Assembly (NCBI GenBank): GCA_964586695.1
Contig: CAZPGQ010000002.1
Span: forward strand, 6,337 to 70,336
Source: an uncultured Candidatus Saccharibacteria bacterium
Lineage (GTDB): Bacteria > Patescibacteriota > Minisyncoccia > Phycocordibacterales > DATDWN01
DNA: 64,000 bases
Direction of reading: 5' to 3'
The notes beneath the pieces are model-generated. The model made no database searches and was not told the origin of the DNA. It was given only the letters and a program-made list of their open reading frames with translations. Shown here piece by piece: positions 21,329 to 62,521 of the stretch (position 1 is the stretch's first letter; every line of letters starts with the position of its first letter). The position numbers were made by a program, and so were the translations under genes.

Positions 21329-21333
21329 AGATT

Positions 21334-21930: not shown

Positions 21931-21942
21931 TATAAATATTTA

Positions 21943-22533: not shown

Positions 22534-22535
22534 AA

Positions 22536-23372: not shown

Positions 23373-23415
23373 ATAACTATTATATTATTAAAATCAAACA
23401 TTTGCACCAAAGATA

Positions 23416-23835
23416 CTAACAAGCGGTGATGCGACCTGCGCCAGCTGGTCTAGGTATCTGCTTAGAACTACCCACACTATCAACACACCAAACCTGCGCG
23501 CCACCGACAGAAGATTTGAGTGGGACCCAAGCGGCCCAAGCAACAATACTAGGCCAGCAAACCCCAACACTACCACCACTAGCATTTTTTGCTGCTTGAA
23601 ACAACTCATTCATTCTAGACTCTGCACAAATTGACCTAAAACCAATATCATTTACGTCATACCAATTTTCTCCTTCCCCTCTCATTGCGGATAAATTACT
23701 TTTTATTGCAGAATCTGCTGCATTATTTCTACCTGTCGTAAAAAAATTCAGCACAACTGATGACAATATACCGATAATCGCAATAACCACCAACAATTCG
23801 ATAAGTGTAAAACCTCTAATAGTTTTATATGTCAT
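23416..23835 (-). CDS. Type IV pilin (PilA-like), paralog 1
   Basis: IRGFTLIELLVVIAIIGILSSVVL N-terminus. C-terminal Cys pair. Confidence 0.8.
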   Translation of the reverse strand: MTYKTIRGFTLIELLVVIAIIGILSSVVLNFFTTGRNNAADSAIKSNLSAMRGEGENWYDVNDIGFRSICAESRMNELFQAAKNASGGSVGVCWPSIVAWAAWVPLKSSVGGAQVWCVDSVGSSKQIPRPAGAGRITAC

Positions 23836-23914
23836 TTTATAATTTTAACAAGAATTGGCTCAATTATTATTAATAATAAACTATTTTTTTTAAAAAATAT
23901 AGTTTATTGGCAAC

Positions 23915-23939
23915 AAAAAACCGCAAATAGCGGTTTTTT
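23915..23939. terminator. Rho-independent terminator hairpin downstream of pilin paralog 2
   Basis: aaaaaaccgcaaatagcggtttttt (palindromic, T-runs both sides). Confidence 0.6.
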
Positions 23940-23963
23940 GTACATTATAAAACGTAAAATAAA

Positions 23964-24443
23964 CTAAGTGTTTGCAATTACACAATCTGCATCTGTATTT
24001 GCGTCAAAAGTAGCAGTAGTAATTTGCATTGAGTTACCTGAATTATCCACACACCAAGCATTAGCGGGATCAGTCTTCAGAGGAGATGCTATTACATACC
24101 AAGTAGAATCCCCGGCGCAAATCACTTCAACATTACCATTCTTTACTATAGCATCATCAATCTGTTTCTGGACAGTTGGGTCGTCGGAAACTGAACTTGG
24201 CTGTCCAGCTGCCCCACAAGTGGCATTATAGTAAGCGCCAACAGGACCATAGTTACCACTAGTATCATAAAATACCTCAGCAGCCGCTCTAATACCTGCG
24301 ATGTCAGCCTTTATAGCAGCGTCAGAACCCTTTGCTCTTGCTGTATTGAGGGATGCCAAAACAACTGATGACAATATACCGATAATCGCAATAACCACCA
24401 ACAATTCGATAAGTGTAAAACCTCTGTTAAGTCTATTTTTCAT
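23964..24443 (-). CDS. Type IV pilin (PilA-like), paralog 2
   Basis: MKNRLNRGFTLIELLVVIAIIGILSSVVLASLNTAR... N-terminus. First about 60 aa near-identical to paralog 3. Confidence 0.8.
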   Translation of the reverse strand: MKNRLNRGFTLIELLVVIAIIGILSSVVLASLNTARAKGSDAAIKADIAGIRAAAEVFYDTSGNYGPVGAYYNATCGAAGQPSSVSDDPTVQKQIDDAIVKNGNVEVICAGDSTWYVIASPLKTDPANAWCVDNSGNSMQITTATFDANTDADCVIANT

Positions 24444-24516
24444 TATTTTAAAATGATTATTATAATTAGTTACTTAATAATAAATCATTTATTTTATAAA
24501 GTATAGTTTATTATTA

Positions 24517-24542
24517 ACAAAAAACCGCAATTTGCGGTTTTT
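24517..24542. terminator. Rho-independent terminator hairpin downstream of pilin paralog 3
   Basis: aaaaaaccgcaatttgcggtttttt, near-identical to the hairpin at 23915. Confidence 0.6.
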
Positions 24543-24568
24543 TGCACATCATGAAATGTGGAAATATA

Positions 24569-25051
24569 TTAACTATTTGCTAATACACAGTCAGAATCTC
24601 CAGTACCTGTGAAAGTAGCCATTGTAATCTGCATTGAATTACCTGAACTATCCACACACCAACCATTAGCTGTACTTGTCTTTAGAGGAACAGCAACAAC
24701 ATAGAGTGAAGGAGAACCAACACATATCGCATCTGTACCACCATTCTTTGCAACAGCATCATCAATTTGTTTCTGTACTATTGGATCTGCTGAAACTGAA
24801 CCAGCAGTAGGTGAAACGCCACAAGATCCATCAAAAAATAGAGCGGCTGAACCGTAGTTACCATTAGCTGTATCATAAAAAACCTCTGCAGCGGCTCTGA
24901 TACCTGCAACGTCCGCTTTGATAGCAGCATCTGATCCCTTACTTCTAGCTGTGTTTAGTGAAGCCAAAACAACTGATGACAATATACCGATAATCGCAAT
25001 AACCACCAACAATTCGATAAGTGTAAAACCTCTGTTAAGTCTATTTTTCAT
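24569..25051 (-). CDS. Type IV pilin (PilA-like), paralog 3
   Basis: Same conserved N-terminus, divergent C-terminal half. Confidence 0.8.
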   Translation of the reverse strand: MKNRLNRGFTLIELLVVIAIIGILSSVVLASLNTARSKGSDAAIKADVAGIRAAAEVFYDTANGNYGSAALFFDGSCGVSPTAGSVSADPIVQKQIDDAVAKNGGTDAICVGSPSLYVVAVPLKTSTANGWCVDSSGNSMQITMATFTGTGDSDCVLANS

Positions 25052-25211
25052 AATTAAATTTTATAATTTTTATTACTAATTTTTTATAATATAACCTCCA
25101 TAATTATTCGACCATCGCTCTCTTTTCAGAGATTACCGTTTTATATAAACGAATAGATATATTATACGGCTGTATTAGAACTAATAAAAGTACCCCTGTG
25201 GATAAGCCACT

Positions 25212-26423
25212 CTATGCAGCAGAAGCAATATTGTATATAGGCATCAAAACAGCGGCCAGAAGCACTCCAACTCCGAGACCAAGAGAAACAATCATCACAG
25301 GCTCTATAAGACTAACCAGAGTGTCGACAGCTGTCATAACTTCTCTTTGGTAGAAATTTGATAGGGATTTAAGAATTTTACCCAATTCCCCCGTCTCCTC
25401 TCCAACCTTAACCATCTGGGTAAGAATATTTGGGATTTCTTTATGCTGCGCAAAAGCATTTGATAGAGATGTTCCTTCTTTAACCTTCTGTAGTGCATCA
25501 TTTAGAATATCTCTAAACATTATATTGTCTACAATTGAAGAAGTTATTTCTAAAGCCTTTAAAATTGGTATTCCACTAATAATCATAGTATTTAAGTTGT
25601 CTGCAATACGTGACAAGTAAAGTTTCCTGTACAAATCTCCTACATATGGAACATTAAGTTTAAGGGTATCAAAATATGCAGCTCCTTCTTCTGTCTGCGC
25701 ATACTTCCACGACATAAAACCCAAAACAACCAACCCAATTGCCATATAAATGCCATAATTTATGAAAAGACTACTTAAATTTAAAACTATAGATGTATAT
25801 ACAGGCACAGGTTGACCAGAGTCAGTTATCATCAAAGCAATTTTAGGAATTATGACTGTTAGCATCAGAACCATAACAGCCAAAAATGTAAATATAATAA
25901 ATGCTGGATATATTAATGCACTTTTTGCTTTTGATGTTACAGCATATGTTCGATCAAGATAGTCTGCTAAGTAGTTAAATATTTCATCCAACTTTCCAGA
26001 CTCTTCACCAGACTTAACCATATTTACGTAAAAACCAGAAAATGTATCTGGATATTTTGACAAAGCCATTGAGATAGAACTTCCACCTTGTATATCATCT
26101 GAAACTTGAGACAAATATTTTGAAAGCAACTTATTGTCAACCTGTGCAGAAAGTAATCTAAAAACTCTTAATGCTGATATTTGAGCTGAAAACAAAGTTG
26201 CTATCTGTCTAGACAATATGACTATATCTTTATTTGAAACTTTATTAAAAATAGCCAAATTGGATAAGTCAAAACCTTTTTGTGACTCATCTACAGAGTT
26301 TATTTGTGTAATAACCAGACCATTACTTTGTAGTTGCTTTATGGCAACATCCACATTAAAAGCCTCTACAGTTCCTTCTGTGGGTGAACCAGTTTTATTT
26401 ATGGCTTTATATTTGAATATCAT
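25212..26423 (-). CDS. pilC: Type IV pilus inner-membrane platform protein (GspF/PilC family)
   Basis: 403 aa, duplicated T2SSF-like domains with 3 TM segments. Confidence 0.8.
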   Translation of the reverse strand: MIFKYKAINKTGSPTEGTVEAFNVDVAIKQLQSNGLVITQINSVDESQKGFDLSNLAIFNKVSNKDIVILSRQIATLFSAQISALRVFRLLSAQVDNKLLSKYLSQVSDDIQGGSSISMALSKYPDTFSGFYVNMVKSGEESGKLDEIFNYLADYLDRTYAVTSKAKSALIYPAFIIFTFLAVMVLMLTVIIPKIALMITDSGQPVPVYTSIVLNLSSLFINYGIYMAIGLVVLGFMSWKYAQTEEGAAYFDTLKLNVPYVGDLYRKLYLSRIADNLNTMIISGIPILKALEITSSIVDNIMFRDILNDALQKVKEGTSLSNAFAQHKEIPNILTQMVKVGEETGELGKILKSLSNFYQREVMTAVDTLVSLIEPVMIVSLGLGVGVLLAAVLMPIYNIASAA

Positions 26424-26427
26424 AAAT

Positions 26428-27495
26428 TTATATCATTCTATCTAGACCTTTTGGATTCTGAGTGTGTAGATAAGCATTTTCAATAGAAATCTCCCCCGCC
26501 CTCACCAAGTCACTCAAGTATCTATTTAAATCAATCATTCCCTGATCTGAACTAGTTTCTATAACAGAATTTATTTCGTGTATACGATTCTCTCTGATTA
26601 GATTTGCAACAGCACTATTGTTTATAAGCAACTCTACAGCAGGAATAAGCCCTCCTGAAATTCTTGGTATTAAACGCTGAGAGAAAATTCCAAGTAAACT
26701 TGAAGATAACTGACTTCTAATCTGTGACTGCTGTCTTGTATCAAATGAGTCTATGATACGGTCTATAGTTTGCGCAGCATTGTTAGTGTGAAGTGTAGAA
26801 AAAACCAAATGTCCAGTTTCTGCAGCGGTAACAGCTGTAGAAATATCTTCAGGAGTTCTCATTTCACCTATCATAATCACATTTATGTCCTGTCTAAAAG
26901 TACCCTGAAGTGCTGTATGAAAATCTGGTGTATCTTCCAAAACTTCCCTCTGATCTATAATAGATTTTTTTGATTCGAATATGTACTCGACAGGGTCTTC
27001 TATAGTAACTATATGTTCTAGACGCTCTTGATTTATGATTTCAATCATAGAGGCAAGTGTTGTACTTTTTCCCTGACCAGTAGGACCCACAACAAGAAAG
27101 AAACCCTGCTTTTTGCTTGTAAAATTCGTAAGAATAGAAGGCAATTTTAATTCTTCAAGTGTTTTTACATGTCGAGGTATAATTCGAAGCGCTATACTTA
27201 TCTTACTCAACTGAATAAATGCATTACCTCTAAATCTTGCAATTGTTCCACTGTTATATGCAAAGTCTACTTCTTTCTTTGTAACAAATATTTCCTTTTT
27301 AGAATCGTCTATCATTTCATCCAGAACCCCCTTTACATCCTGTTTTGACATAACGCCCTGGTTTACAAGAGGAATCAAAATACCAGAAACACGAATAGCA
27401 GGAACTCTACCCTCTCCAATATGTATGTCCGAAGCACCTTCTTTCAAAAGAATTGCAATCAAAGTGTCTAATTGTTTTTTATAATCTGTTGCCAT
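26428..27495 (-). CDS. pilT: Type IV pilus retraction ATPase (PilT family)
   Basis: 355 aa. Walker A GPTGQGKSTTLASMI. Size and architecture of PilT rather than PilB. Confidence 0.8.
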   Translation of the reverse strand: MATDYKKQLDTLIAILLKEGASDIHIGEGRVPAIRVSGILIPLVNQGVMSKQDVKGVLDEMIDDSKKEIFVTKKEVDFAYNSGTIARFRGNAFIQLSKISIALRIIPRHVKTLEELKLPSILTNFTSKKQGFFLVVGPTGQGKSTTLASMIEIINQERLEHIVTIEDPVEYIFESKKSIIDQREVLEDTPDFHTALQGTFRQDINVIMIGEMRTPEDISTAVTAAETGHLVFSTLHTNNAAQTIDRIIDSFDTRQQSQIRSQLSSSLLGIFSQRLIPRISGGLIPAVELLINNSAVANLIRENRIHEINSVIETSSDQGMIDLNRYLSDLVRAGEISIENAYLHTQNPKGLDRMI

Positions 27496-27882
27496 TTATT
27501 TTTGTTTATTTTTATAGACAGAAAGCACCTGATCAACAACTTCCGATGGAATAGTAGTTGCTTTTATTATATAACCATCAACACCAAGCACCTTTGCTTT
27601 ATCAAAATCATCTGCCTGATTTGTTAACATAATTATTGTTGATTCTGGCAATAATTTTTCCTCTCTAATTTTTTTAAGAAGCTCTAAACCATCCATACCA
27701 GGCATTATTATATCCATAAGTATAATGTTATAGACATTTGAGCGAATTTTTTCTAGAGCAGACAGACTATTTGATGACGTATCTATCTCAAGACCTGACT
27801 TCTTAAACTTCATGGAATACATATCGAGAAGAAACTTGTCATCATCAATAAGTAGTATTTTTATTTGTGGGTTATCTGACAT
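27496..27882 (-). CDS. CheY-like response regulator receiver (stand-alone REC, PilH-like)
   Basis: KILLIDDDKFLL...ILMDIIMPGMDGLELLKKIR. 128 aa, no output domain. Confidence 0.75.
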   Translation of the reverse strand: MSDNPQIKILLIDDDKFLLDMYSMKFKKSGLEIDTSSNSLSALEKIRSNVYNIILMDIIMPGMDGLELLKKIREEKLLPESTIIMLTNQADDFDKAKVLGVDGYIIKATTIPSEVVDQVLSVYKNKQK

Positions 27883-27890
27883 TTTTTTGA

Positions 27891-29609
27891 TTATAACATA
27901 TTGACCTCTTCAAAAGGAATCAGCTTGTGCATTGCTTTTATAATTGCATCTTCTTTCATTGTGATCATTCCATTTGCTCTAACTAGTTTTGCAATTTCTA
28001 TTTCATTTGCACCTTTCAAGATCAAACTTTCTAGGTCTTTACCCATTTCCATAACTTCCATAACAGCAACTCTTCCTCTTGTTCCATTTGGGCATTCTGG
28101 ACTTTCACCTGCCTTATAAACTTTATCAGTGAATTCTATTTCATCTTTAAATTTCTTTGGCAGGTCTTCGAATTGTTTATCTATCATAACTTTTATACTA
28201 CCTTCTACCGCCATTGGCACACCAGCATCTGGACACAATCCCAACGCTAGGCGCTGTGCTATAGCCAAAATAAGCGTAGGGGCAATAAGATATGGATCAA
28301 TACCCATATCTATAAGTCTTGGAATCACGCCAACAGCTGTGTTCGTGTGGATTGTCGAAAGCACCAAGTGACCCGTCAAAGCAGCCTGTATGGCTAGCTG
28401 AGCTGTCTCTTTGTCTCGAATCTCACCCACCATTATAATGTCTGGGTCTTGACGAAGTGTTGTACGAAGTCCAGATGCAAATGTATAACCAATCTCTGAT
28501 TGAACTTGGGATTGAGATATACCCTCAATGTTATATTCGATAGGATCTTCAAGAGAAAGAACATTTTGATGTTCCCTATCAAGCTCGTTTAACATTGAAT
28601 AAAGAGTTGTTGTTTTTCCTGAACCTGTTGGACCAGAAATTAATATAAGGCCATACGGTTTATCAATCGCATCCCTGATAAGTTTTATATTTTTTGGACT
28701 CAAACCTAATTGTTCCAAAGTTTTTATACCCTTTTCTTGATCCAAAAGACGCATCACAACCTTCTCTCCAAAATATGTAGGGAATGTAGAAACACGAAAG
28801 TCTATCTTCCTACCTTCAATACGTGTAGTAAAACGACCGTCCTGTGGCTTCCTTCTTTCATCCAATCTCATTTCACTCAAAATTTTGATACGAGCAACCA
28901 CCGCAGAATGAACTTTTGAAGGCAACGTCAGACTTGTGTTCATAACGCCATCAACACGAAAACGAACCTTAACCTGTTCTCTCCACGGTTCAATGTGAAT
29001 ATCTGAAGCATTACCGTCTGAAGCATATCGTAGTATTGTTGCTACGATTCTTGTTACTGGTGCATCTTCTGAAATTTCACTTTCATTTGGAGTTTCATTT
29101 TCAGCATTTGCTCTTTCTTCCGCTCTCGTGGTTTCCAGTGCTAGTTCTGTTTCTAGCTCACTTAATGTCTTAGAAACCTCTGCTGTTATGCCTTTGTATT
29201 GTGAAGAAATTTTATTAAAATCTGCCTCAGAAATTAAGAAGATTTTAAACGGCATACCAATTTTTGTTGATATGAAATTTAATGCATCACGAGCCTCTAT
29301 GTCATCAGGATCAACCATTCCAACCTCTAGTACCCCGTTTGTAACAGCCAAAGGAACAAAACGATAGTGCGAGACTGAATCTTCTGGAATATAAGAAAGA
29401 ATTTTTTCTGAAACATCCTTACCACTCAAATTTTTTGTTGGTATATCAAAATACTCCCCTTTTGCCAAGAGAATATCGTGAGGAGAAACTCCATTTTTAA
29501 TCAAAGATTCTTCTATTGTTATACCTTCGTTAACAGAATAATCAGTAATCTTATTGACATCACTTTGATTAACTATTTTCTTTTGTACTAATATCTGAAT
29601 TATATCCAT
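27891..29609 (-). CDS. pilB: Type IV pilus assembly ATPase (GspE/PilB family)
   Basis: 572 aa. N-terminal GSPII_E_N-like region. Walker A ISGPTGSGKTTTLYSML. Confidence 0.85.
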   Translation of the reverse strand: MDIIQILVQKKIVNQSDVNKITDYSVNEGITIEESLIKNGVSPHDILLAKGEYFDIPTKNLSGKDVSEKILSYIPEDSVSHYRFVPLAVTNGVLEVGMVDPDDIEARDALNFISTKIGMPFKIFLISEADFNKISSQYKGITAEVSKTLSELETELALETTRAEERANAENETPNESEISEDAPVTRIVATILRYASDGNASDIHIEPWREQVKVRFRVDGVMNTSLTLPSKVHSAVVARIKILSEMRLDERRKPQDGRFTTRIEGRKIDFRVSTFPTYFGEKVVMRLLDQEKGIKTLEQLGLSPKNIKLIRDAIDKPYGLILISGPTGSGKTTTLYSMLNELDREHQNVLSLEDPIEYNIEGISQSQVQSEIGYTFASGLRTTLRQDPDIIMVGEIRDKETAQLAIQAALTGHLVLSTIHTNTAVGVIPRLIDMGIDPYLIAPTLILAIAQRLALGLCPDAGVPMAVEGSIKVMIDKQFEDLPKKFKDEIEFTDKVYKAGESPECPNGTRGRVAVMEVMEMGKDLESLILKGANEIEIAKLVRANGMITMKEDAIIKAMHKLIPFEEVNML

Positions 29610-29611
29610 AT

Positions 29612-29953
29612 TTAAGGTCTAGATGCAGTTTGTGTTTTTGGAGCTCTATAAGTCCCATCCTCAGCACCTATAGGAGCAAATGGATTTGGTCTACCCTGCT
29701 CTTCAGGCGAAATAATAGACGAAAAATCGACTAAACTTAGAAAAGCTTCATTTGAAAAAATTGTTTTATCAATTTTTAAATCCTTAAGTTTAGTAACTAA
29801 TGCTACAACATCCTCACTAGTCGTTTCAGCCTCAATAGATTCATTAAGAACAACACCTTCTGTAGATTTGTTGTATAAACCGTAACCCAAATAGGCCACA
29901 AAAATAATAGTTATTGATACAGCTATTAATTTTTGAACGAGTGATGTGAGCAT
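29612..29953 (-). CDS. Small single-TM pilus-assembly accessory protein (PilP-like position), function uncertain
   Basis: 113 aa, N-terminal TM, operon context. Confidence 0.4.
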   Translation of the reverse strand: MLTSLVQKLIAVSITIIFVAYLGYGLYNKSTEGVVLNESIEAETTSEDVVALVTKLKDLKIDKTIFSNEAFLSLVDFSSIISPEEQGRPNPFAPIGAEDGTYRAPKTQTASRP

Positions 29954-29954
29954 A

Positions 29955-30509
29955 TTATTTTAGAGAATAGGTATTTACTTCTAATGAAACTTTGACCAAA
30001 GAATCCAACTTTGTACTATCTGACAATTCTACGTCCAGGCCAACAACATCTATGACTCTTAAACTAGTCTCTATATCATTCAAAAAACCTAATGCATCCT
30101 CATATTTACCAACAATATTAAAAGTCGCCGAGGTTGTCCTATATGTTGGTGTGAGTAAACCAGTTATATCATCTTGTCTAACATCGGATCTGTTGTCTGT
30201 AGTGGTAAACCCATCAAACGAAAGGTTCCTTTGGTTTGCCATACCTGTTAAATCATTAACAAAAGTAACTGGATCAAACTTATCTGGCACAGCCTTAGTC
30301 AGTCTATCCATATCTTCCTGTGATATCGTATTGTAATCCTGCAATATCTGATCTCTTTTATCATTTAAACCAGTAGCCTCTTGAATTACAGTTTTATAAT
30401 CTTTATTCATTTTTGCTAGTAATTTTACTTTACCAGCAAGAGGTACTATATAAAAATAGTACATAAAGATTGAAATTATAACGACTAATATTGGTGTTAA
30501 TGATTTCAT
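29955..30509 (-). CDS. PilO-like bitopic pilus assembly protein
   Basis: 184 aa, N-terminal TM followed by coiled coil. Context between pilN-like and pilB. Confidence 0.45.
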   Translation of the reverse strand: MKSLTPILVVIISIFMYYFYIVPLAGKVKLLAKMNKDYKTVIQEATGLNDKRDQILQDYNTISQEDMDRLTKAVPDKFDPVTFVNDLTGMANQRNLSFDGFTTTDNRSDVRQDDITGLLTPTYRTTSATFNIVGKYEDALGFLNDIETSLRVIDVVGLDVELSDSTKLDSLVKVSLEVNTYSLK

Positions 30510-31151
30510 TTATGGTTCAATTTGTGACTCATCAGTTACAGTTGATTCAACCTGATCAACAGCAGTATCCTCTGCCTTCATATAAGAAATAACAGTAGTG
30601 TCTATACCAGATGTAAAAGTAATTTTCACATTACCATTGTCTTGTAATGAAAAATCGCCAAATGTAGGATTTACTATGTACGGATTCTGAGAAAAAATAT
30701 TTGATTGCTCGACTACTGCGTTATATGTCTGTGCCTCACCCGCCATTGTTAATGTTGGAATATTATTCTGCTTATTATAACTTAACTTTGTTAGTCTAAC
30801 TTTCTTTACAATTAAATCTTGCATGAGGTACAAAATTTCTGAAGTAGACACGTGATTATTTATAATTCTTCTTGCAGAAGTTATCTTAGCATCTACATCA
30901 ACCAACTCTTGCACTTTTTCGACTTGATAGACAGCTTTAGCTTTTTTTAAATCTTCATCTGCTTTACTTATCTGACTCAATAAAATCATTTTGTATAAAA
31001 ACAAGCCTCCAAAAGTAGCTAGAGAGATAACAAATATAGTATTAGAAATTATAGATATAATATTAATATCTCTTACAACATTTGAACTATGACCAGGTTC
31101 ATTTATTATAGATTTCTTAGGAATGAACGATGTTTGGAATGTTGGTTGCAT
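30510..31151 (-). CDS. pilN: PilN-like bitopic pilus assembly protein
   Basis: 213 aa, TM (IFVISLATFGGLFLY) followed by coiled coil. Immediately downstream of pilM. Confidence 0.5.
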   Translation of the reverse strand: MQPTFQTSFIPKKSIINEPGHSSNVVRDINIISIISNTIFVISLATFGGLFLYKMILLSQISKADEDLKKAKAVYQVEKVQELVDVDAKITSARRIINNHVSTSEILYLMQDLIVKKVRLTKLSYNKQNNIPTLTMAGEAQTYNAVVEQSNIFSQNPYIVNPTFGDFSLQDNGNVKITFTSGIDTTVISYMKAEDTAVDQVESTVTDESQIEP

Positions 31152-31237
31152 AAGTTATAAGTAATTATATTACAGTATATATAAAAAGACTATATGCTAT
31201 TGGTGGAAAACTAATTATAAACTATATAAATTAAAAA

Positions 31238-32350
31238 TTAATCTAACTCTTGTAACTTTCTCAACGCAATACCGACAGCAACAGCAAATTCTGGACCGGT
31301 TTCTTTTAATACTTTTTCTAAAAATGCTGGGGCAACTACTTTTGAAAATGGGTCTCCAGCAACAACTTCTGTCTGAAAAATATTTTTTGCAACATCAACA
31401 ACCCCTTTTAATGCACTACCTCCGCCAACAAGCATAACTTTACTTACGTTTTTGTTGTATTTTTTTTGATAAGCCATAACAACGTGACTTGCTTCAGAAA
31501 AAATATAATTAAGCGTAAAAGAAGCGACATCTTTGAGAGCTATACCGTTAATATCCCCTAAAAGTCCCTTCTCTCTCTTTAAATACTCTGCATCTTCGAT
31601 TGAAATTCCTATGGATTTTGAAAGTTCATCAGTTATATTGTGAGATCCCCTATCTATCATATGCGAAGATCTAAGTACACCTTTCTCAACAATGTATAAT
31701 TTTGTTGTAGATGCCCCCATATCAATTATCATTACTGGAGAGACTTCTTCGTCCAAAACCGAACGCATTGTACTAAAAATCTCTATCTCAAAAAACCCAG
31801 CAATAAGTCCAGTTTTTGTAACTATATCTTTGTATCGATTGATTGTGTCATTATGTAAAGCAACTATTAAAACCTCCATTTTCTGCATTGTTTCCCCTTC
31901 ATTCTCAACAGGTATTGGATCTATATTTTTTTCCTTTGGTACTACATACCAATCCAAAGTTACCTCTGAAATTGGAACTGGAATGTATTTTCTAGCTTCT
32001 ATTGGAACCATTTGCTCTAGCTGTTTTTTATCAACAACTGGCATATCTATCACGGTCATCAAGCTTGATGAAAACTGAATTGCAACACCGCAATCTCTTG
32101 TTGTAATATTGACCTCCTTCTCCTTTAAAATATCATTTACAGCTTCTATGATCTTTTCCGTCGAAAGATTTGTTGACTCTCCCACTCCCTTGCCAGAATA
32201 AGGTCCTAGAGCAAGTTCACCGTAAGTTTCTAGAACGGCATGACCATTCCTTTTACTTATTTGAACTATTTTTATTGAAGAGGAGCCTATATCTACACCA
32301 AGAACGCTGGCGCTTTGTTTATTAAATAGTTTTGTAAAGAAATTAGCCAT
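31238..32350 (-). CDS. pilM: Type IV pilus assembly ATPase-like actin-fold protein
   Basis: 370 aa. N-terminal VLGVDIGSSSIKIVQI actin-like phosphate-1 motif. Confidence 0.75.
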   Translation of the reverse strand: MANFFTKLFNKQSASVLGVDIGSSSIKIVQISKRNGHAVLETYGELALGPYSGKGVGESTNLSTEKIIEAVNDILKEKEVNITTRDCGVAIQFSSSLMTVIDMPVVDKKQLEQMVPIEARKYIPVPISEVTLDWYVVPKEKNIDPIPVENEGETMQKMEVLIVALHNDTINRYKDIVTKTGLIAGFFEIEIFSTMRSVLDEEVSPVMIIDMGASTTKLYIVEKGVLRSSHMIDRGSHNITDELSKSIGISIEDAEYLKREKGLLGDINGIALKDVASFTLNYIFSEASHVVMAYQKKYNKNVSKVMLVGGGSALKGVVDVAKNIFQTEVVAGDPFSKVVAPAFLEKVLKETGPEFAVAVGIALRKLQELD

Positions 32351-47984: not shown

Positions 47985-48378
47985 GGGGGATGACAGGCAT
48001 AGACAAGTAAGTCCTTTGACAATGTGCACGACAGAACTGAAGTAATTCTTTAAACTGCTTCAAAGCATAGATGCTAAAAACACCTTTGCAAAAGCAATCC
48101 CTTCACCATTTATGGCGAATGGATTCGCTCTCGCTTTCGCTTAATCTTTTAGATTAAACCAAAACGGCGGCTATTCCTCGAAGTCTGTTACAGGAAATAG
48201 TTGATATATCATCGGACTTGAGAACGTCTTAGTTTCGAGGCGGACTGACACAAAGAAAACTAAAATACAATTCATTTTGTTGGTTTAAAGAATTGTATTT
48301 GAAAAATAAAACCAACTACGTCGTGTAGAAACATTGCCAAAACTTATTTGCACGGCGGTTCAAATCCGCCCTTCTCCA
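47985..48378 (+). ncRNA. ssrA: tmRNA (ssrA): tRNA-Ala-like ends plus tag reading frame ANGFALAFA-stop
   Basis: 5' GGGGGAUGACAGGCAUAGAC. 3' T arm ggcgg-ttcaaat-ccgcc + acceptor cttctcc + A, with G3-U70 wobble pairing to the 5' end. In-frame gcg aat gga ttc gct ctc gct ttc gct TAA at 48115-48144. Immediately downstream of smpB, and followed by a terminator. Confidence 0.7.
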
Positions 48379-48382
48379 CAAA

Positions 48383-54769: not shown

Positions 54770-55552
54770 TTATTTAGTTAATATTATGGGATCTCCTTCT
54801 GTGATGGCGACTGTATGTTCAAAGTGAGCAGCATTAGTTCCATCTGCTGTTTTATATGTATAACCATCACGAGCAAGAACTATTTTATCTGTACCCAAAG
54901 TAAGCATAGGTTCTATCGCAATAACCATTCCAGGCTTTAACAATTCTCCTGTGCCTTTCTTTCCTTCATTTGGTACATATGGGTCTTCGTGAACTTTATA
55001 TCCCACACCATGTCCAGCCAAGCCTTCTGAAAGACCGTAACCCAAACCCCTGGCGAATGTTCCTATTGCCTCCCCTATATCACCAACCCTAGAGCCCCCT
55101 CTGGCGGCCTTAATTCCGAGGTACAAAGCCTCTTTTGTGTGCTCTAGCAACTTTCTATCTTCCTCTAGAACACTGCCAACTGGCACCGTTATAGCACTGT
55201 CTGTAATAAGTCCTTGATGAACCAGACCGAGATCCAGAGAAACGATGTCACCATCCTGCAAAATAAGAGGATCTTCATTTGGTATTCCGTGAACTATTTC
55301 ATTGTTTACAGAAACACATAGTGCTGCTGGATAAGGTCTTTTTGCACCGTGTGGTGTGTAGTTCAAAAATGCAGCAGTGTCCCCACCTTCATGAATTAAT
55401 TTTTGCGCATAGTCTTCTAGATGCTGTGTCGAAACTCCCGGAGCTACCTTTTTTGCAACTTCAGCAAGAATATATGCGTGGCGTTTGCCACCCTCTCTCA
55501 TTATCTCTATTTCCTCCTGTGTTTTTATATTTATAGCCATTTTATAATCCAA
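54770..55552 (-). CDS. map: Methionine aminopeptidase type I
   Basis: Metal-binding residues in DIVSLDLG...HGVGYKVHEDP...IAIEPM. Confidence 0.85.
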   Translation of the reverse strand: MDYKMAINIKTQEEIEIMREGGKRHAYILAEVAKKVAPGVSTQHLEDYAQKLIHEGGDTAAFLNYTPHGAKRPYPAALCVSVNNEIVHGIPNEDPLILQDGDIVSLDLGLVHQGLITDSAITVPVGSVLEEDRKLLEHTKEALYLGIKAARGGSRVGDIGEAIGTFARGLGYGLSEGLAGHGVGYKVHEDPYVPNEGKKGTGELLKPGMVIAIEPMLTLGTDKIVLARDGYTYKTADGTNAAHFEHTVAITEGDPIILTK

Positions 55553-56132
55553 GTTTAGACATCAACTCTTTGTTCACCTCTACGATAGACTGTTCACCAT
55601 TTACAGTTATAAAGTTGTAAAATTCATTATTCTTAAAATACTCTACTGCAGAAAGTACATTATTCTCAAACCAATCCAATCTTTTTTCAATTTGCTCCAA
55701 CTTATCATCTCCTCTTTCTCTTGCGAGCAACTTTTCTCTTGCCCACTCACGAGAAACTTCAATCATAATCACATACGGCTTTTCCCTGTTATAAAACTTC
55801 ATTGCAGAATTAAGTATTGGCGCCTCATGTGCTCGCCTAGAAAGACCGTCGAGTATCATATGTTCATCACCACTAACATGTCTAACAAAATATTCTGACC
55901 AAAGCCAAATAGGCAAGAACTCTGGAAGAAGACCCCCACCATCAATTAACTCTTTCGTCTTCATAGATGTAAATGAAGCCTCTGTCATAAACTCTCGAAA
56001 GCGTCTACCAGTTTCAATATATAAAGTCTTTCTTTCCGGATCAACACTTTGTAAATGATCGATAAGAATTCTTGCTTGTGTTCCCTTTCCGGCTCCTGAT
56101 GGACCGAAAAATATGAAAGTTTTTGGTGTCAT
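55542..56132 (-). CDS. adk: Adenylate kinase (start at MTPKTFIFFGPSGAGKGTQ)
   Basis: P-loop GPSGAGKGTQA. LID/NMP-binding regions. Confidence 0.8.
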   Translation of the reverse strand: MTPKTFIFFGPSGAGKGTQARILIDHLQSVDPERKTLYIETGRRFREFMTEASFTSMKTKELIDGGGLLPEFLPIWLWSEYFVRHVSGDEHMILDGLSRRAHEAPILNSAMKFYNREKPYVIMIEVSREWAREKLLARERGDDKLEQIEKRLDWFENNVLSAVEYFKNNEFYNFITVNGEQSIVEVNKELMSKLGL

Positions 56133-56195
56133 AAGATGAGTATAGCAAAATTTATACAAACGATAAACGACGGCCACTCCTCCAAGTGGACGTCG

Positions 56196-57176
56196 TTAGA
56201 AACGAATTTCAGACTGAACTGCTTTGCCATTCCAAGGGACTTCTTCTCGAGGAATATCGAAGAGGCCGTACTGGAAGTGTGGACCCACCCAGACACCTAG
56301 GGCTGGGACTGACAAAAGATCCCCGAGGTCTGCTGGTCGAACAACTGGTTCGACGATAGTTTCTTCCGTTTTTGGCACGATGACCGCATGCGGAAGAATC
56401 TCGAGGTTAACCTGTACGGGGTTTCTCCGCCACAGAGGGACTCTCGTCAGAAAACCGACAATCTCCTTGAACCGCTTTACTTGTTCGTAGGAAATGGAAG
56501 CTTCCCTTTCGAGTAGTGAGTGATGGAGTCTCTCAGCCCACTTTCGGTGACCAGCAGATTCGAAGCGGAACTTTTCAGGTCCATCGTTCCATGCAGATCG
56601 CCAACTACGAGCCATGAACGAAAGCTCGTGTGGCACAATCTCACAGGATCCAACCAGCGAAGCCAGCCTCTGGGCCAACTGCCAGTCGGTGTCTGTGTAC
56701 AGGAAGTACTTGTGGTGGTCACCTTTAGTCCTAGACTCACCAGAAATACTCGGCCCTGGAAAATATGGAACCAACTGCCAACGAAGAGCTATGCAACCCT
56801 TTATGACAGTTTGACGGTACAGATAAGTCAGCTTCTCAGGATGCAGACCTTGTCTTATCTTCCTTTGCAGACTCTTGGCCTTGAACAGGAAGTCACCAAT
56901 CGGAGTTCCGGCAGAATACTCTACATTTTTCCGACTGGAGAATTTACGAGCCCAATAGTCGAGCTCCGCAAGCAGGTCACTGTCTGACAGAAGTGTAACC
57001 TGCGGTAGGTAGTACAGACGAACCTCGTCGGACTTTTCAGGGTCAGACTTTGGGTCGTAGTCTGGGAATAGTGCTTGTAGCCTTTTCCCAAACTTAGTAT
57101 TTTCCTTTGCTGGTGTCGGGGTAATATTTCGTAAAGCCTTCATGGGCGATACGAAAGACAAAACTCTCGCAGCCAT
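56196..57176 (-). CDS. GC-rich foreign ORF (326 aa from MAARVLSFVSP...) inserted between secY and adk. Function unknown.
   Basis: Composition visibly richer in G+C than all neighbours (many overlapping spurious ORFs in the track). RBS aagagg 6 nt upstream of ATG 57176. No recognisable catalytic motif by eye. Confidence 0.6.
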   Translation of the reverse strand: MAARVLSFVSPMKALRNITPTPAKENTKFGKRLQALFPDYDPKSDPEKSDEVRLYYLPQVTLLSDSDLLAELDYWARKFSSRKNVEYSAGTPIGDFLFKAKSLQRKIRQGLHPEKLTYLYRQTVIKGCIALRWQLVPYFPGPSISGESRTKGDHHKYFLYTDTDWQLAQRLASLVGSCEIVPHELSFMARSWRSAWNDGPEKFRFESAGHRKWAERLHHSLLEREASISYEQVKRFKEIVGFLTRVPLWRRNPVQVNLEILPHAVIVPKTEETIVEPVVRPADLGDLLSVPALGVWVGPHFQYGLFDIPREEVPWNGKAVQSEIRF

Positions 57177-57219
57177 GAAAACCTCTTTCTGAAATTCGTG
57201 TGAAGAACAGCCTGAATGA

Positions 57220-57278
57220 ATGTTAAACAAACACAAAAACAGTGTCAAAGAATTTTCGTTCTTTGACACTGTTTTTGA
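57220..57278 (-). promoter_or_regulatory. Hairpin-plus-promoter module: 18-bp-arm palindrome (57235-57276) whose 3' arm carries TTGACA (-35), 17-nt spacer, TAACAT (-10), upstream of the GC-rich ORF
   Basis: aaaaacagtgtcaaagaa-ttttc-gttctttgacactgttttt. -35 at 57243-57248 and -10 at 57220-57225 on the minus strand. Confidence 0.5.
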
Positions 57279-57424
57279 TTTTCCGCAATGCTGTGTTCAA
57301 AATTCTGAGGATTTTTGTTGAAGTTCGAAGTTTGCAGATTTTACTTTCGACCAAGCTGTACACTGAGTACTGCGCGTGGAGGAAGTAAAATCGAGAACAA
57401 AGAAATTCGGCGAAAAGACCAGAA

Positions 57425-58696
57425 TTAATATTCTCGGATAGAAACTTGTGCATCAACTCGCTTAATCAGGTCGATTACCACTGATACAACGATAAGCAAT
57501 GCTGTACCACCAACTGAAACTGCTGTGATTCCTGTAACACCTCGCATAATAAGAGGTAGAACTGCAATGAAACCTAGGAACAACGCGCCAACTAAAGTTA
57601 GTCGAGTAAGTATTCGAGCAATATGTTCTGAAGTTGATTTTCCTGGTCGAACTCCTGGAATAAACGCTCCGTTCTTCTGTAGGTTAGTTGAAATCTGATC
57701 TGGATCAAATGTAACTGCTGTGTAGAAATATGTGAAGATAAACACAAGCAAGAAATATGCAATAGCGTAGAACCAACTGTTAGCAAGAACTGTTAGGACT
57801 GCAGATGAAATTGTTTGAACTATTGAGTTAGAAGAGTTTTCCAAGAATCTCAAAATCATCTGTGGGAAAAGAAGAATAGAAAGTGCAAAGATAATTGGGA
57901 TAACTCCTGCTTGGTTTATTCGTAGTGGTAGGTATGTAGATGTTCCACCGTATACCCTGTTTCCTCTTACCTGCTTTGCATATGTAACTGGTATTGGTCT
58001 TTCTGCTTCTGTGATGATAACCACTGCAACAATAACAATAACTGCAATAACTGCGAATGCTAGATAAACAGGAATCTGTGATGGATCAAATGAGAAAGCT
58101 AACTGTGAAATTACTGTAGGAAGAGACGCTACGATACCAGAGAAAATAATCAGACTCATTCCGTTTCCAATACCGTACTCTGTGATTAGTTCACCAACCC
58201 ACATCAACAGAACTGATCCAGCTGTTATTACTAAAATATTTGTAACCAAAGCAAGAGGAGGAAGGTGTGCTATTACACTCTGACTCTCTAGAAGTTTTAT
58301 AAAACTGAAAGACTGAAGTACAGCAAGAGGAACAGTGATTAATCTAGAATATTGCGCGAACTTCATTCTTCCTGCCTCACCTTCTTCCTGATACATCTCC
58401 TTTAGTCGTGGAGACATGATAGTCAAAAGTTGCATTATGATAGACCCTGTAATGTAAGGACCTACTCCAAGCATCACTATAGAAAGCTGTGAAAGTCCTC
58501 CTCCAGAGAAAATGTTAAGCAAACCAAAAAACTCATTACTTGTAAAAAACTGTGCAAGTCTTCCACGATCAACTCCTGGAACAGGAATAGAAGCTAAAAC
58601 TCTAAAAAGAGCTAAAGCAAAAAGTGTGAAAAATATTCTTCGTCTCAGGATTCTATCTGCAAAGACGAGTGAAAATTTATTAAAGAATTCTTTCAT
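57425..58696 (-). CDS. secY: Preprotein translocase subunit SecY
   Basis: 423 aa, 10 TM, conserved SecY blocks. Confidence 0.9.
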   Translation of the reverse strand: MKEFFNKFSLVFADRILRRRIFFTLFALALFRVLASIPVPGVDRGRLAQFFTSNEFFGLLNIFSGGGLSQLSIVMLGVGPYITGSIIMQLLTIMSPRLKEMYQEEGEAGRMKFAQYSRLITVPLAVLQSFSFIKLLESQSVIAHLPPLALVTNILVITAGSVLLMWVGELITEYGIGNGMSLIIFSGIVASLPTVISQLAFSFDPSQIPVYLAFAVIAVIVIVAVVIITEAERPIPVTYAKQVRGNRVYGGTSTYLPLRINQAGVIPIIFALSILLFPQMILRFLENSSNSIVQTISSAVLTVLANSWFYAIAYFLLVFIFTYFYTAVTFDPDQISTNLQKNGAFIPGVRPGKSTSEHIARILTRLTLVGALFLGFIAVLPLIMRGVTGITAVSVGGTALLIVVSVVIDLIKRVDAQVSIREY

Positions 58697-58701
58697 AGTA
58701 T

Positions 58702-59142
58702 TTATTTTACACTACCACCAGCTTTCTCGATAGCAGTCTTAGCAGTAGCTGAGACAAGACATCCTTCAAAACTTAGTTTTTTATCTAGTGCTCCTGTTGC
58801 CAAAATCTTTACCTTTGGAAGGTTTCCTTTAGACATTGTTAGTACGTTGTACTTTACCAATGATTCTGGAGAAACAACATCTCCGTTTTTACATAGTTTG
58901 TTCAATAGACCCAAGTTTACTGTAGAGAATTTTGACTGGATACTTGTGTTCAAGTTCTTTCCTCGTCCTCGAAGCTTTGGAAGTCTCTTTATGAAGTCTC
59001 GGATTTCTGGTCGCTTCTTGTGACCTGCTCGAGCATTCTGTCCCTTTGTACCTCGTCCAGAAGTTTTTCCACGAGTTCCACCTCTTCCCATCTGTCGGTG
59101 CTTCTTGTTCTTTGTTACTCTTTTTAGTTCGTGACTTTGCAT
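58702..59142 (-). CDS. rplO: 50S ribosomal protein L15
   Basis: GRGGTRGKTSGRGTKGQNARAG. Confidence 0.85.
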   Translation of the reverse strand: MQSHELKRVTKNKKHRQMGRGGTRGKTSGRGTKGQNARAGHKKRPEIRDFIKRLPKLRGRGKNLNTSIQSKFSTVNLGLLNKLCKNGDVVSPESLVKYNVLTMSKGNLPKVKILATGALDKKLSFEGCLVSATAKTAIEKAGGSVK

Positions 59143-59153
59143 ATATTTTTAAA

Positions 59154-59735
59154 TTATTTAGCTGGCTTCAACATCTGAAGAGCTTTTATTGTAGCCTTTG
59201 CGTTGTTTATCTTGTTCTTTGATCTTGAGAAAAACTTAGCACTAACCTCTTTGATTCCTGCCATCTCTAGAACAACACGAGCAGATGAACCTGCTAGAAC
59301 TCCCTTTCCTGGAGCTCTCATGATAAGAACTTGTGATCCAGAAAACTTTGCCTTTACATCATGTGGAACTGAACCATGCTTTGTTAAGTTCACCTTGATC
59401 ATATTCTTTCGAGCGTCTCGAACTGCTTTGTCGATAGCGACAGGAGTGTCTCCAGCCTTACCCATTCCAACTCCAACTCTTCCTTTGTGATCACCAATAA
59501 CTACACCAACTGAAAATGAGAATCTTCGTCCTCCAGTAACAACACGAGTCACTCTTCGGATTCCGATAAGTTTCTGATCGAATTCAGGTTTAACACGAGC
59601 CTCTCTTCTTGGAGCGCCTTTTCGTGAGTTCTTCTTGAACTCTCTTCCTCCTCGGTTATCCTGTGCAGGAATAGTAGCCTCTACTGGTAGAGTTGTTGCT
59701 GTAACTTCTTCTGTTTTTATTACGTCTGTATCCAT
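59154..59735 (-). CDS. rpsE: 30S ribosomal protein S5
   Basis: VTRVVTGGRRFSFSVGVVIGDHKGRVGVGMGKAGDTPVAIDKA. Confidence 0.85.
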   Translation of the reverse strand: MDTDVIKTEEVTATTLPVEATIPAQDNRGGREFKKNSRKGAPRREARVKPEFDQKLIGIRRVTRVVTGGRRFSFSVGVVIGDHKGRVGVGMGKAGDTPVAIDKAVRDARKNMIKVNLTKHGSVPHDVKAKFSGSQVLIMRAPGKGVLAGSSARVVLEMAGIKEVSAKFFSRSKNKINNAKATIKALQMLKPAK

Positions 59736-61343: not shown

Positions 61344-61409
61344 ATACTACCAATAAGGCAGAAAAAAGTCAACGAAAACGAACCAGCCGGCACCAAAGTG
61401 GTGCCGGCT
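61344..61409 (-). promoter_or_regulatory. Module A: terminator hairpin agccggcac-caaagt-ggtgccggct (61385-61409) followed by cgttttcgTTGACTttttt-17nt-TAGTAT promoter driving rpsN
   Basis: -35 TTGACT at 61367-61372 and -10 TAGTAT at 61344-61349 (minus strand). Small hairpin agctt-gaaa-aagct + T-run in the 5' UTR. Confidence 0.5.
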
Positions 61410-61483
61410 ATGATGGTCACTGACGACCATCGAGGAACTTGGAACGGGAAGCGACATACTTCTCCAGATCTTGAAGGGCTCTC

Positions 61484-61840
61484 TCAATATCTACCGGATC
61501 CCGATAGTGGCTGAGAACATCTGATATCAATTCGGGAATTTGTTCCATCGACAAATATCCGAATTGTCATAACGTATCCAGACACACTGTCAGAGGATTC
61601 TACAACGTAGTACCCATCAAGCACCCTCCACTCTTCCACCTTGAAGCGTGGTTCTGTGAGGAGCTTACGGTACTTACTTGAGAGCTTCTCCTCCCTCTTT
61701 TCCCTTAACCAGCGCCTGTACCCCTGACCGATTTTCTTTATACCCACCCAGTATCTCTTGGCGAGCACCGTCAGTGTACTTGTAGGGATTGCACATCCCA
61801 TACCAAGTGCAAATCCGAGCAGTATTCCACTCAAATCCAT
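61484..61840 (-). CDS. GC-rich foreign ORF 1 (118 aa): N-terminal TM helix + basic/beta-rich C-terminal domain. Function unknown.
   Basis: MDLSGILLGFALGMGCAIPTSTLTVLA... ; G-rich RBS ggggggg upstream; followed by module A. Confidence 0.5.
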   Translation of the reverse strand: MDLSGILLGFALGMGCAIPTSTLTVLAKRYWVGIKKIGQGYRRWLREKREEKLSSKYRKLLTEPRFKVEEWRVLDGYYVVESSDSVSGYVMTIRIFVDGTNSRIDIRCSQPLSGSGRY

Positions 61841-61879
61841 ATCCCGCCCCCCCTAAACAAGGGTATTCTGAATTATAAA

Positions 61880-61928
61880 AAAGTCAACGAAAACGAATCA
61901 GCCGGCACACCCATAGGGCATGCCGGCT
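61880..61928 (-). promoter_or_regulatory. Module B: hairpin agccggcac-acccatagggca-tgccggct plus gattcgttttcgTTGACTttttt, between foreign ORF2 and ORF1 (near-repeat of module A)
   Basis: Shared about 30-nt core ...agccggca...tgccggct(g)gttcgttttcgttgactttttt with module A. Confidence 0.5.
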
Positions 61929-61934
61929 TAGTAC

Positions 61935-62372
61935 TCAGAACCTTGAATCGAGAATTCGACCCAAGTAGATCGTTGTGAATGATATCACATCCTGAGCCGA
62001 CGCGTTTGCGTCGTATAACCGGATGCTCTTTCCCCAGCTAATGTTCCAGTGGATGTCACCCTTGGAACTTGATGACATATCCACCTCGATGTGGATAAGG
62101 GGGATCATATGTTCAGCCACCACAATATGGTGAGCGCCACCCTCTTCAGCACGAACCTGCACCACAAACTGACTACCGAAGTAGCCAGAGATCGCATTTG
62201 CGATCCTATTGGTGATGTTGTCTTGTGTCGACCGGAGCTTGTGGCTCCGTCGCTCTTTGCGGTACCTGACCAGCTTCTTCTGCTGACGGCTCTTGGCATC
62301 ATCGGCGCCAAGTTTCCAGCCAACGAAGAACACGAACAAATACGAAACGATGAGGTTCAGAAAGATGTACAT
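61935..62372 (-). CDS. GC-rich foreign ORF 2 (146 aa from MYIFLNLIVSYLFVFFVGW): N-terminal TM helix + Arg/Lys-rich and His-rich C-terminal domain. Function unknown.
   Basis: Track ORF begins at a TTG (62477) that is actually the -35 box. The ATG at 62372 is preceded by aaggata. Confidence 0.5.
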   Translation of the reverse strand: MYIFLNLIVSYLFVFFVGWKLGADDAKSRQQKKLVRYRKERRSHKLRSTQDNITNRIANAISGYFGSQFVVQVRAEEGGAHHIVVAEHMIPLIHIEVDMSSSSKGDIHWNISWGKSIRLYDANASAQDVISFTTIYLGRILDSRF

Positions 62373-62447
62373 CTTACTATCCTTGTAGGGAGTAAACGTC
62401 CCTTGACGTATTGAGGAATTTGGGTACCTCAATTTACCACTATGTAT

Positions 62448-62477
62448 ATTATACCACACTTTATATATAAAAGTCAA
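62448..62477 (-). promoter_or_regulatory. Consensus sigma70-type promoter TTGACT-18nt-TATAAT for the inserted cassette
   Basis: Minus strand cTTGACTtttatatataaagtgtggTATAATatacat, directly after the rplE terminator. Confidence 0.55.
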
Positions 62478-62495
62478 GCATATAAGAGTATTAGA

Positions 62496-62521
62496 AAAAC
62501 CGCTCGATTGAGCGGTTTTTC
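62496..62521. terminator. Rho-independent terminator after rplE
   Basis: aaaaaccgctcgattgagcggttttt. Confidence 0.65.

Follow-up and report, generated by a model that had tools for sequence, protein, structure and literature searches.

Why does a GC-rich orphan gene stand between secY and adk, two genes that are usually adjacent, and where does its composition come from? The question was raised by a stretch of 64,000 nucleotides (nt) from an uncultured Candidatus Saccharibacteria bacterium (contig CAZPGQ010000002.1, positions 6,337 to 70,336), called here the window, whose minus strand carries the order rpsE, rplO, secY, ORF326, adk, map, ndk, ORF326 being an open reading frame (ORF) of 326 amino acids (aa). 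A preliminary description of this DNA had taken ORF326 for an independent foreign insertion. That view is contradicted by the position of the gene after secY in 12/12 readable contexts, by a synonymous divergence (dS) similar to that of the flanks in comparison with the homologous loci L001 and L002, by the lack of any G+C decay and by the lack of homologues in mobile elements. ORF326 is an ancient lineage-specific addition, fixed at the secY-adk slot in the loci examined, and not a recent import, and the most likely source of its high G+C is selection for an unusually tightly folded mRNA.

Place, composition and product of ORF326

As secY and adk are usually adjacent, the segment that separates them here is additional DNA, and it holds the GC-rich 326-aa ORF that had been described there (coordinates in Table 1). 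The G+C content of ORF326 is 0.497 and its G+C at third codon positions (GC3) is 0.498, compared with a GC3 of 0.26-0.30 in the neighbouring genes and of 0.19-0.33 in the ordinary genes of the window. In the profile of the flanking region, G+C in sliding windows reaches 0.50-0.52 only across 56200-57200, which corresponds to the ORF326 coding sequence. When all ORFs of the window are compared, GC3 outliers other than ORF326 are limited to a pair of ORFs at 61484-62477, a giant repetitive gene and some tRNA regions. The C-ending codons of Phe, Tyr, Asp and His make up 67-81% in ORF326 against 28-38% in host genes, and the CTG share is 37% against 5%. The good ribosome-binding site (RBS) noticed earlier is present, the Shine-Dalgarno (SD) sequence AAGAGG lying 5 nt ahead of the ATG.

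Matches to the ORF326 family were rare, with 20 representative matches among 1.84 billion representatives, and three of them are close homologues, at 89%, 76% and 45% identity. The family members with a readable context lie directly after secY in every case (12/12), and adk is the directly following gene in 10/11 of the loci long enough to include the next gene, the exception being L010/L011, where a 100-aa ORF intervenes. This secY-adk placement holds at 23-26% identity of the ORF, where adk itself is only 43-45% identical to that of the window. One homologous locus is labelled uncultured Candidatus Saccharibacteria. Every homologue has a GC3 of 0.48-0.65, irrespective of the GC3 of the host flanking genes (0.19-0.54). 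The preliminary description had linked routine placement of homologues between secY and adk with native composition; the placement is indeed routine, but the composition is not native, all copies being GC-rich.

The phage and plasmid collections searched by tblastn, and the viral and JGI metagenome contigs scanned with protein patterns, contained no ORF326 homologue; scanning the JGI metagenomes with the palindrome found upstream of the gene gave no match, and the scan of the genome collection recovered the L001 contig only. None of the 12 contexts read places a homologue outside the secY-adk locus type. Mobility genes, a second ORF326 copy, a recombinase or an att-like site were not found. 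Over these contexts the distribution is not patchy, and no homologues in other lineages or mobile elements were detected. A literature search returned no description of the gene family or of the folding phenomenon reported below, and both appear undescribed.

ORF326 is under purifying selection, with a ratio of nonsynonymous to synonymous divergence (dN/dS) of 0.11-0.22 against its relatives, weaker than the selection on adk, secY and map (0.01-0.09). The sense frame alone stays open in all 12 homologous loci, over 290-425 codons, the indels among homologues are whole codons and the protein motifs are kept. The dense overlapping ORFs on both strands that had been reported are present, but they are not conserved in the homologues and are by-products of the composition of ORF326. 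An overlapping or antisense gene was rejected as the reason for the high G+C, since no alternative frame is conserved. The dS of ORF326 is 1.31 against L001 and 0.26 against L002, equal to that of the respective flanks (1.2-2.1 and 0.17-0.28), which counts against a recent import. Upon polarisation with L001 as outgroup, the third-position changes between the window and L002 were 18 AT>GC and 16 GC>AT, in a test of moderate power as the outgroup is nearly saturated (dS of about 1.3). These balanced changes, with no excess of GC>AT, indicate that the composition of ORF326 is maintained and is not decaying toward that of the host.

The predicted protein, taken to be cytoplasmic, has an isoelectric point (pI) of 9.3, and the family, with pI values mostly of 8-10, is Arg/Trp-rich and without membrane segment. 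AlphaFold2, using a 22-sequence alignment, gave an all-alpha core over residues ~40-260, with a predicted local distance difference test (pLDDT) score mostly of 85-98 and a low-confidence loop at 138-157, while the N-terminus and the C-terminal tail (~260-326) are disordered. The core contains a repeated helical unit of ~55 residues (SDWxLxQxLAS...ELxF...GPxxFxF...RxxAExL), and some members carry it in two full or partial copies. The acidic tail carries as many as three motifs of the Qx[DE]L[LF] type, and its end reads W[DN]GxAxQ..[LI]xF. Its clamp-like peptides are seen in about half of the members (QLDLF in P0003) and are degenerate in the window protein (DLGDLL, QSEIRF). One member, P0017 (254 aa, L004 35-950), looks frameshifted, the conserved C-terminal motif (...SAWKGEATQVGLFDL) lying in another frame past the called stop.

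In agreement with the earlier remark that the protein has no recognisable domain, searches of Pfam, PHROGs, NCBIfam and PADLOC gave no match or chance matches only, for every member of the 22-sequence alignment as well. The profile search against PDB sequences returned nothing below E = 0.3, the fold comparison matched no known fold, and no similarity to ribosomal or Sec components was found. A similarity to HEPN was rejected, as the catalytic histidine is not conserved. As a working proposal, held with low confidence, the protein might bind nucleic acids or serve as an adaptor, and its tail might dock on a conserved partner.

Folding of the ORF326 mRNA

The ORF326 RNA is strongly over-folded, with a folding z of -5.09 compared with +0.39 for an equal length of secY, and the values ranged from -4.5 to -5.1 across the runs. 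The 12 homologues behave in the same way, with z of -3.4 to -12.8 against dinucleotide shuffles and of -3.4 to -7.2 against synonymous-codon shuffles, in which the protein and the codon usage are kept. Control genes gave much weaker values: -2.0 to +1.5 for the flanking genes under synonymous shuffles, -0.95 to +0.55 for six ribosomal-protein and ndk genes, and -1.8 to +0.4 for seven GC-matched genes of a relative with a G+C of 0.49. In a further 38 genes of the window the mean z was -0.26 (standard deviation 1.31, minimum -2.45), ORF326 being the most extreme at -4.55. Overall, about 60 control genes lie between -2.5 and +2.5.

The folding excess persists under shuffling in 60-codon blocks and in 120-nt windows. 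Local compositional heterogeneity was rejected as its source by the 60-codon-block shuffles and the GC-matched controls. The codons of the C-terminal tail show no folding excess. The sense strand has z values of -4.7 to -6.7 against -1.7 to -4.3 for the antisense strand, which argues for an effect on RNA, where G-U pairs count, rather than on DNA.

The start of the message is itself part of this structure. The energy for opening positions -15..+12 is 15.3 kcal/mol in the ORF326 of the window and 12.3 on average in the family, compared with 5.8 in 48 genes of the window (p = 1e-6). In L001 and L002 the RBS hairpin shows a T>C change in the 5' untranslated region that is matched by AAG>AGG in codon 13. 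The RBS hairpin is predicted to restrain translation initiation of ORF326. Compensatory base-pair change was seen only for this hairpin, in close relatives, and for the two hairpins that flank the gene.

Flanking hairpins, promoter-like sites and neighbouring features

The palindrome upstream of ORF326 had been read as a terminator of secY and a promoter for the insert. The palindrome itself is perfect, as described, with a stem of 19 bp rather than the 18-bp arms first given, and the TTGACA, the 17-nt spacer and TAACAT were all found at the spacing reported. A terminator scan matched the hairpin (19 pairs, T-rich tail), and a 14-mer of its arm has no other occurrence in the window. In all 12 loci a hairpin of 14-21 bp, flanked by an A-run and a T-run, stands 46-77 nt ahead of the ATG. 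In the alignment of 11 loci, 96.4% of the cells are paired, compared with 39-53% in slid registers, and 7/19 pairs changed on both sides, values reached by 0/500 shuffles.

TTGACA sits in the 3' arm of the hairpin and forms, with TAACAT, a 10/12 match to the consensus, the best promoter-like site of the region, with a predicted transcription start near 57213. As 7 promoter-like matches were found where 3.5 +/- 1.8 are expected by chance, a single match is not significant, and the site is credible because it is conserved in the relatives. The TGTCA/TGACA core is unchanged in 9/11 aligned loci, as expected if the 3' arm doubles as the -35 element, and a -10-like hexamer follows 15-17 nt past the -35 in the loci read by eye. 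The covarying pairs and the conserved -35 core support the earlier reading, and the hairpin would act as an intrinsic terminator of the upstream ribosomal-operon transcript as well as a promoter for ORF326. Searching the region with Rfam 15 gave nothing at gathering score, with only chance-level microRNA-model matches on the palindrome (E 0.25-0.63).

The spacer between secY and the palindrome differs among loci. A conserved non-coding element of ~75 nt (CCTTACAGGnACnGTACACCTTTC...TCAAGGTCTTGCGAA) is common to two distant loci, L001 (9700-9790) and L010 (7790-7870), and might represent a small RNA or a small mobile element. It is not present in the spacer of the window, which contains an inverted repeat of 10 nt (57337-57346 and 57383-57392).

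The GC hairpin that had been reported between the ORF and adk was also confirmed and overlaps the stop codon. Its arms (56166-56178 and 56185-56197) are 13 nt long with one mismatch, and the stem begins within the stop codon. A GC-rich hairpin at or just past the stop codon occurs in 11/12 other loci, with unrelated sequences in the distant ones; the exception, L014, ends 129 nt beyond the stop. The downstream hairpin is a putative terminator or attenuator of the ORF326 transcript. An SD-like GGAGG or GAGGTGA is seen in the loop or apical part of the hairpin in 8/12 loci showing it, including the window, L001, L003, L006, L008, L009 and L010, with no start codon at a usable distance.

The adk gene has no SD sequence. 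Ahead of its ATG, TGnTATAAT or TGnTATACT is found in seven loci (L001-L006 and L008), at 6-7 nt in five of them and at 15-17 nt in L005 and L008. This -10-like element is a candidate restart promoter for a leaderless adk-map-ndk mRNA.

The preliminary description had counted a second independent foreign insertion of the same design in this operon. A second GC-rich insertion with hairpins and TTGACT does exist, between rplE and rpsN; the "independent foreign" part is not supported for ORF326. The second insertion holds ORF145 (145 aa) and ORF118 (118 aa), each with a hairpin and a promoter-like TTGACT site ahead of it and with an N-terminal hydrophobic segment. Their mRNAs are over-folded (z of -4.0 and -2.9, respectively) with buried RBSs, while some of their positional counterparts in the relatives are not over-folded. 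A 32-nt direct repeat of the terminator-promoter module (61362-61393 and 61877-61908, 97% identical) flanks ORF118, which suggests that duplication of this module, or recombination at it, brought in the ORF118 cassette. By tblastn, neither ORF of the second insertion showed detectable homology to ORF326 or to its own positional counterparts in the relatives. L001 has the same terminator-promoter module ahead of rpsN, but followed by a different GC-rich ORF without detectable similarity. Further GC-rich orphan ORFs were observed in the same cluster of the relatives (L010 9156-9458 and 10988-11521; L001 895-1275; L012 3703-4173 and 10622-10855), and the extra slots lie after the ORF326 homologue and at map-ndk, rplB-rpsS and rplE-rpsH, only some of these mRNAs being over-folded.

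Table 1 Coordinates of ORF326, its flanking genes and associated elements in the window
Feature	Position	Strand	Details
326-aa orphan ORF (ORF326)	56196..57176	-	ATG 57176, stop TAA 56198-56196, MAARVLSF...EIRF
secY, upstream flank	57425..58696	-	PF00344 in orthologous locus
adk, downstream flank	55542..56132	-	true start MTPKTF, ATG at 56132
Hairpin after secY	57234..57277	-	perfect 19-bp stem CAAAAACAGTGTCAAAGAA / TTCTTTGACACTGTTTTTG, 6-nt loop, A-run before, T-run after
Sigma-70-type promoter-like site	57220..57248	-	TTGACA 57248-57243, 17-nt spacer, TAACAT 57225-57220
RBS hairpin (predicted)	57133..57185	-	pairs SD AAGAGG (57187-57182) and AUG (57176-57174) with codons 10-15
GC-rich hairpin at ORF326 stop	56166..56197	-	loop TGGAGG, then TTTATCGTTT
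Extended -10-like TGcTATACT (56147-56139)	56130..56147	-	6 nt ahead of adk ATG (56132-56130)
Second GC-rich insertion, rplE-rpsN	61362-62510	-	ORF145 61935-62372, ORF118 61484-61840

Other features of the window were recorded. In the ribosomal-protein cluster, rplO adjoins rpsE (58702-59735) without rpmD (L30) between them, in line with the reported loss of L30 in this bacterial radiation (PMC9297842). An open frame of >2,732 aa on the minus strand (1-8198) runs off the start of the window and encodes a Gly/Ala/Thr/Ser-rich repetitive protein with 33% Gly; this giant gene explains why positions 1-7500 form a block of G+C 0.50 in which the GC skew is strongly negative. A cluster of type IV pilus-like genes, several of whose products begin like pilins (GFTLIELLVV), lies at 19843-32350, and a tmRNA gene (Rfam RF00023, 100.8 bits) at 47986-48381.

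Competing explanations and known systems

The excess G+C of ORF326 does not extend beyond the coding sequence, is found at synonymous sites and has reached substitution equilibrium; selection on mRNA folding is the preferred explanation. Our reading, to which we give a probability of about 0.6, is that of an insulated, single-copy, clade-wide orphan gene whose G+C comes from selection for dense mRNA structure. In the proposed mechanism, the 19-bp hairpin after secY would end the upstream ribosomal-operon transcript, and its 3' arm would supply the -35 TTGACA of a sigma-70-type promoter from which a monocistronic ORF326 mRNA of ~1.05 kb would start. The second hairpin, beginning inside the stop codon, would end this mRNA, and adk would restart as a leaderless message from its own extended -10 element. 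The sense-strand mRNA would be selected for dense structure, including the hairpin that buries the SD and the AUG, and the predicted outcome is a compact, long-lived message, translated poorly or only under some conditions.

Several points weigh against this reading. The structure conservation index is 0.09-0.19 among diverged homologues, predicted coding-region pairs are retained no more than null pairs, and local folding z profiles correlate only among the three closest sequences. A single conserved RNA fold across the family was rejected on these grounds; what has been conserved is the propensity to fold in general and no particular structure. Minimum-free-energy predictions lack precision for RNAs of 1 kb, the polarised substitution test is limited by its near-saturated outgroup, and the functional proposal for the protein is drawn from composition and motif resemblance. 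Only some of the other GC-rich orphan ORFs in the relatives are hyper-structured, and the high G+C may therefore have causes besides folding. Plain descent meets a difficulty in L003, whose ORF is 45% identical with a dS of ~3.2 against 1.1-1.2 in its flanks, although these flanks are close to those of the window (adk 84% and secY 92% identical) and as near as in L001, where the ORF has 78% identity. Additionally, identity between the window and L002 is mosaic, ranging from 60-100% across 100-nt blocks. Inheritance has therefore not been strictly vertical, and the diverged L003 ORF together with the L002 mosaic point to allele exchange by recombination.

These same observations are the basis of a rival in which ORF326 is an exchangeable allele cassette, that is, a fixed slot whose ORF is repeatedly replaced among Saccharibacteria by homologous recombination through the flanks, its composition coming from a shared gene pool or GC-biased gene conversion and not from RNA folding. 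The constancy of GC3 (0.48-0.65) whatever the GC3 of the host would fit such a pool, as would the 32-nt terminator-promoter module directly repeated around one ORF of the second insertion. We consider it unlikely as the whole explanation, as composition alone cannot produce the z values obtained against shuffles of identical composition and protein and leaves the sense-strand folding bias unexplained, the dS against L001 and L002 fits vertical descent, and no recombinase or att-like site was found; as an added process it is compatible with selection on mRNA folding. The earlier view of a recently acquired horizontal islet with its own promoter and terminator accounts for the atypical composition and codon usage, for the private signals and for the orphan status of the family. 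It is nevertheless very improbable, given the same site in 12/12 relatives down to 23% identity, a dS against L001 and L002 that equals the flanking values, third-position changes without a GC>AT excess, no homologue outside this locus type or in the phage, plasmid and viral collections, and neither mobility genes nor a second copy.

The fixed place inside the ribosomal-protein and secY cluster, the basic, Arg-rich protein and a structured RBS that could act as an operator might instead indicate a lineage-specific ribosome- or translocon-associated factor under autogenous translational control, like the regulators of ribosomal-protein operons; the group is known to lack some ribosomal proteins (PMC9297842), and rpmD is absent between rpsE and rplO. 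Such a factor is improbable for a gene that is insulated by terminators with its own promoter, whose codon usage is unlike that of ribosomal protein genes, whose dN/dS is 0.11-0.22 against 0.01-0.09 in its neighbours, and whose product showed no similarity to ribosomal or Sec components. That the functional product would be a large structured non-coding RNA, with the ORF incidental, is scarcely credible: a GC-rich segment in an AT-rich genome, extreme folding z in all homologues and a buried RBS would suit it, but the dN/dS, the frame of 290-425 codons (and no other) open in every homologue, the whole-codon indels, the conserved protein motifs and the confidently predicted core all speak for a protein, and the coding-region helices show neither covariation nor positional conservation and have no Rfam match. 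A dual-function transcript of ~1 kb, in which the RNA itself is selected (as a stored message, a scaffold or a ligand of its own protein) while encoding the protein, is possible though doubtful; the mRNA and its basic Arg/Trp-rich protein might, for example, form a self-contained RNA-protein particle. If this were true, ORF326, ORF145 and ORF118 would represent an undescribed class of insulated, structure-selected genes in Saccharibacteria, which would take in the latter two as they are also over-folded, with their own promoters and buried RBSs.

Under selection for mRNA folding, ORF326 is a protein-coding family whose synonymous sites appear shaped mainly by the folding of the message, and it lends itself naturally to the study of the constraints that mRNA structure places on coding sequence. 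An effect of this strength, with z between -4 and -7 under synonymous shuffling in all homologues, is to our knowledge more typical of RNA viruses than of cellular genes. The Saccharibacteria depend on hosts and have reduced genomes, and for most of their lineage-specific genes no function is known; an insulated, fast-evolving and probably translationally restrained gene in the most conserved operon cluster is a testable candidate for lineage-specific biology.

Sliding-clamp-binding peptides of the QL[SD]LF type and the acidic tails of proteins like the single-stranded-DNA-binding protein (SSB), which end in a hydrophobic tip, resemble the disordered acidic tail of the ORF326 family with its Qx[DE]L[LF] motifs and W[DN]GxAxQ..[LI]xF end. 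This likeness is a lead only, as the motifs are degenerate in the window protein and the core fold resembles no known clamp partner. The rpoH thermosensor and the stable folded mRNAs of the hok type are examples of mRNAs regulated by structure in the coding region. ORF326 is similar in that its SD and AUG pair with downstream coding sequence and the whole message is over-folded; it differs in that the structure spans ~800 nt of a 326-codon gene, without positional conservation in distant homologues, and in that no small toxin, antisense RNA or heat-shock role is known for it. With terminators that overlap a downstream promoter, the upstream hairpin shares the A-run, the stem, the T-run and a -35 inside the 3' arm, both structure and hexamer core being conserved. 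It departs from them by its long stem (14-21 bp) and by a sequence that is near-invariant in the closer relatives, features from which the hairpin could also be a protein operator, and its activity at ORF326 is a prediction.

The closest layout is that of the phage 'moron' (PMC3594210), a unit of deviant G+C that has its own promoter and terminator. Judged from sequence-level evidence, ORF326 is likewise an independent unit between normally adjacent genes of a conserved operon, and its G+C differs from that of the surrounding genes, with the same offset in all homologous loci. Unlike a moron, it is chromosomal, lying in the ribosomal-protein/secY/adk cluster and not in a phage or prophage, it occurs in every relative examined instead of being polymorphic in presence and absence, and its composition is at equilibrium, with no mark of recent transfer. 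Atypical G+C together with a private promoter and terminator, from which recent horizontal transfer is commonly deduced, need not have that meaning.

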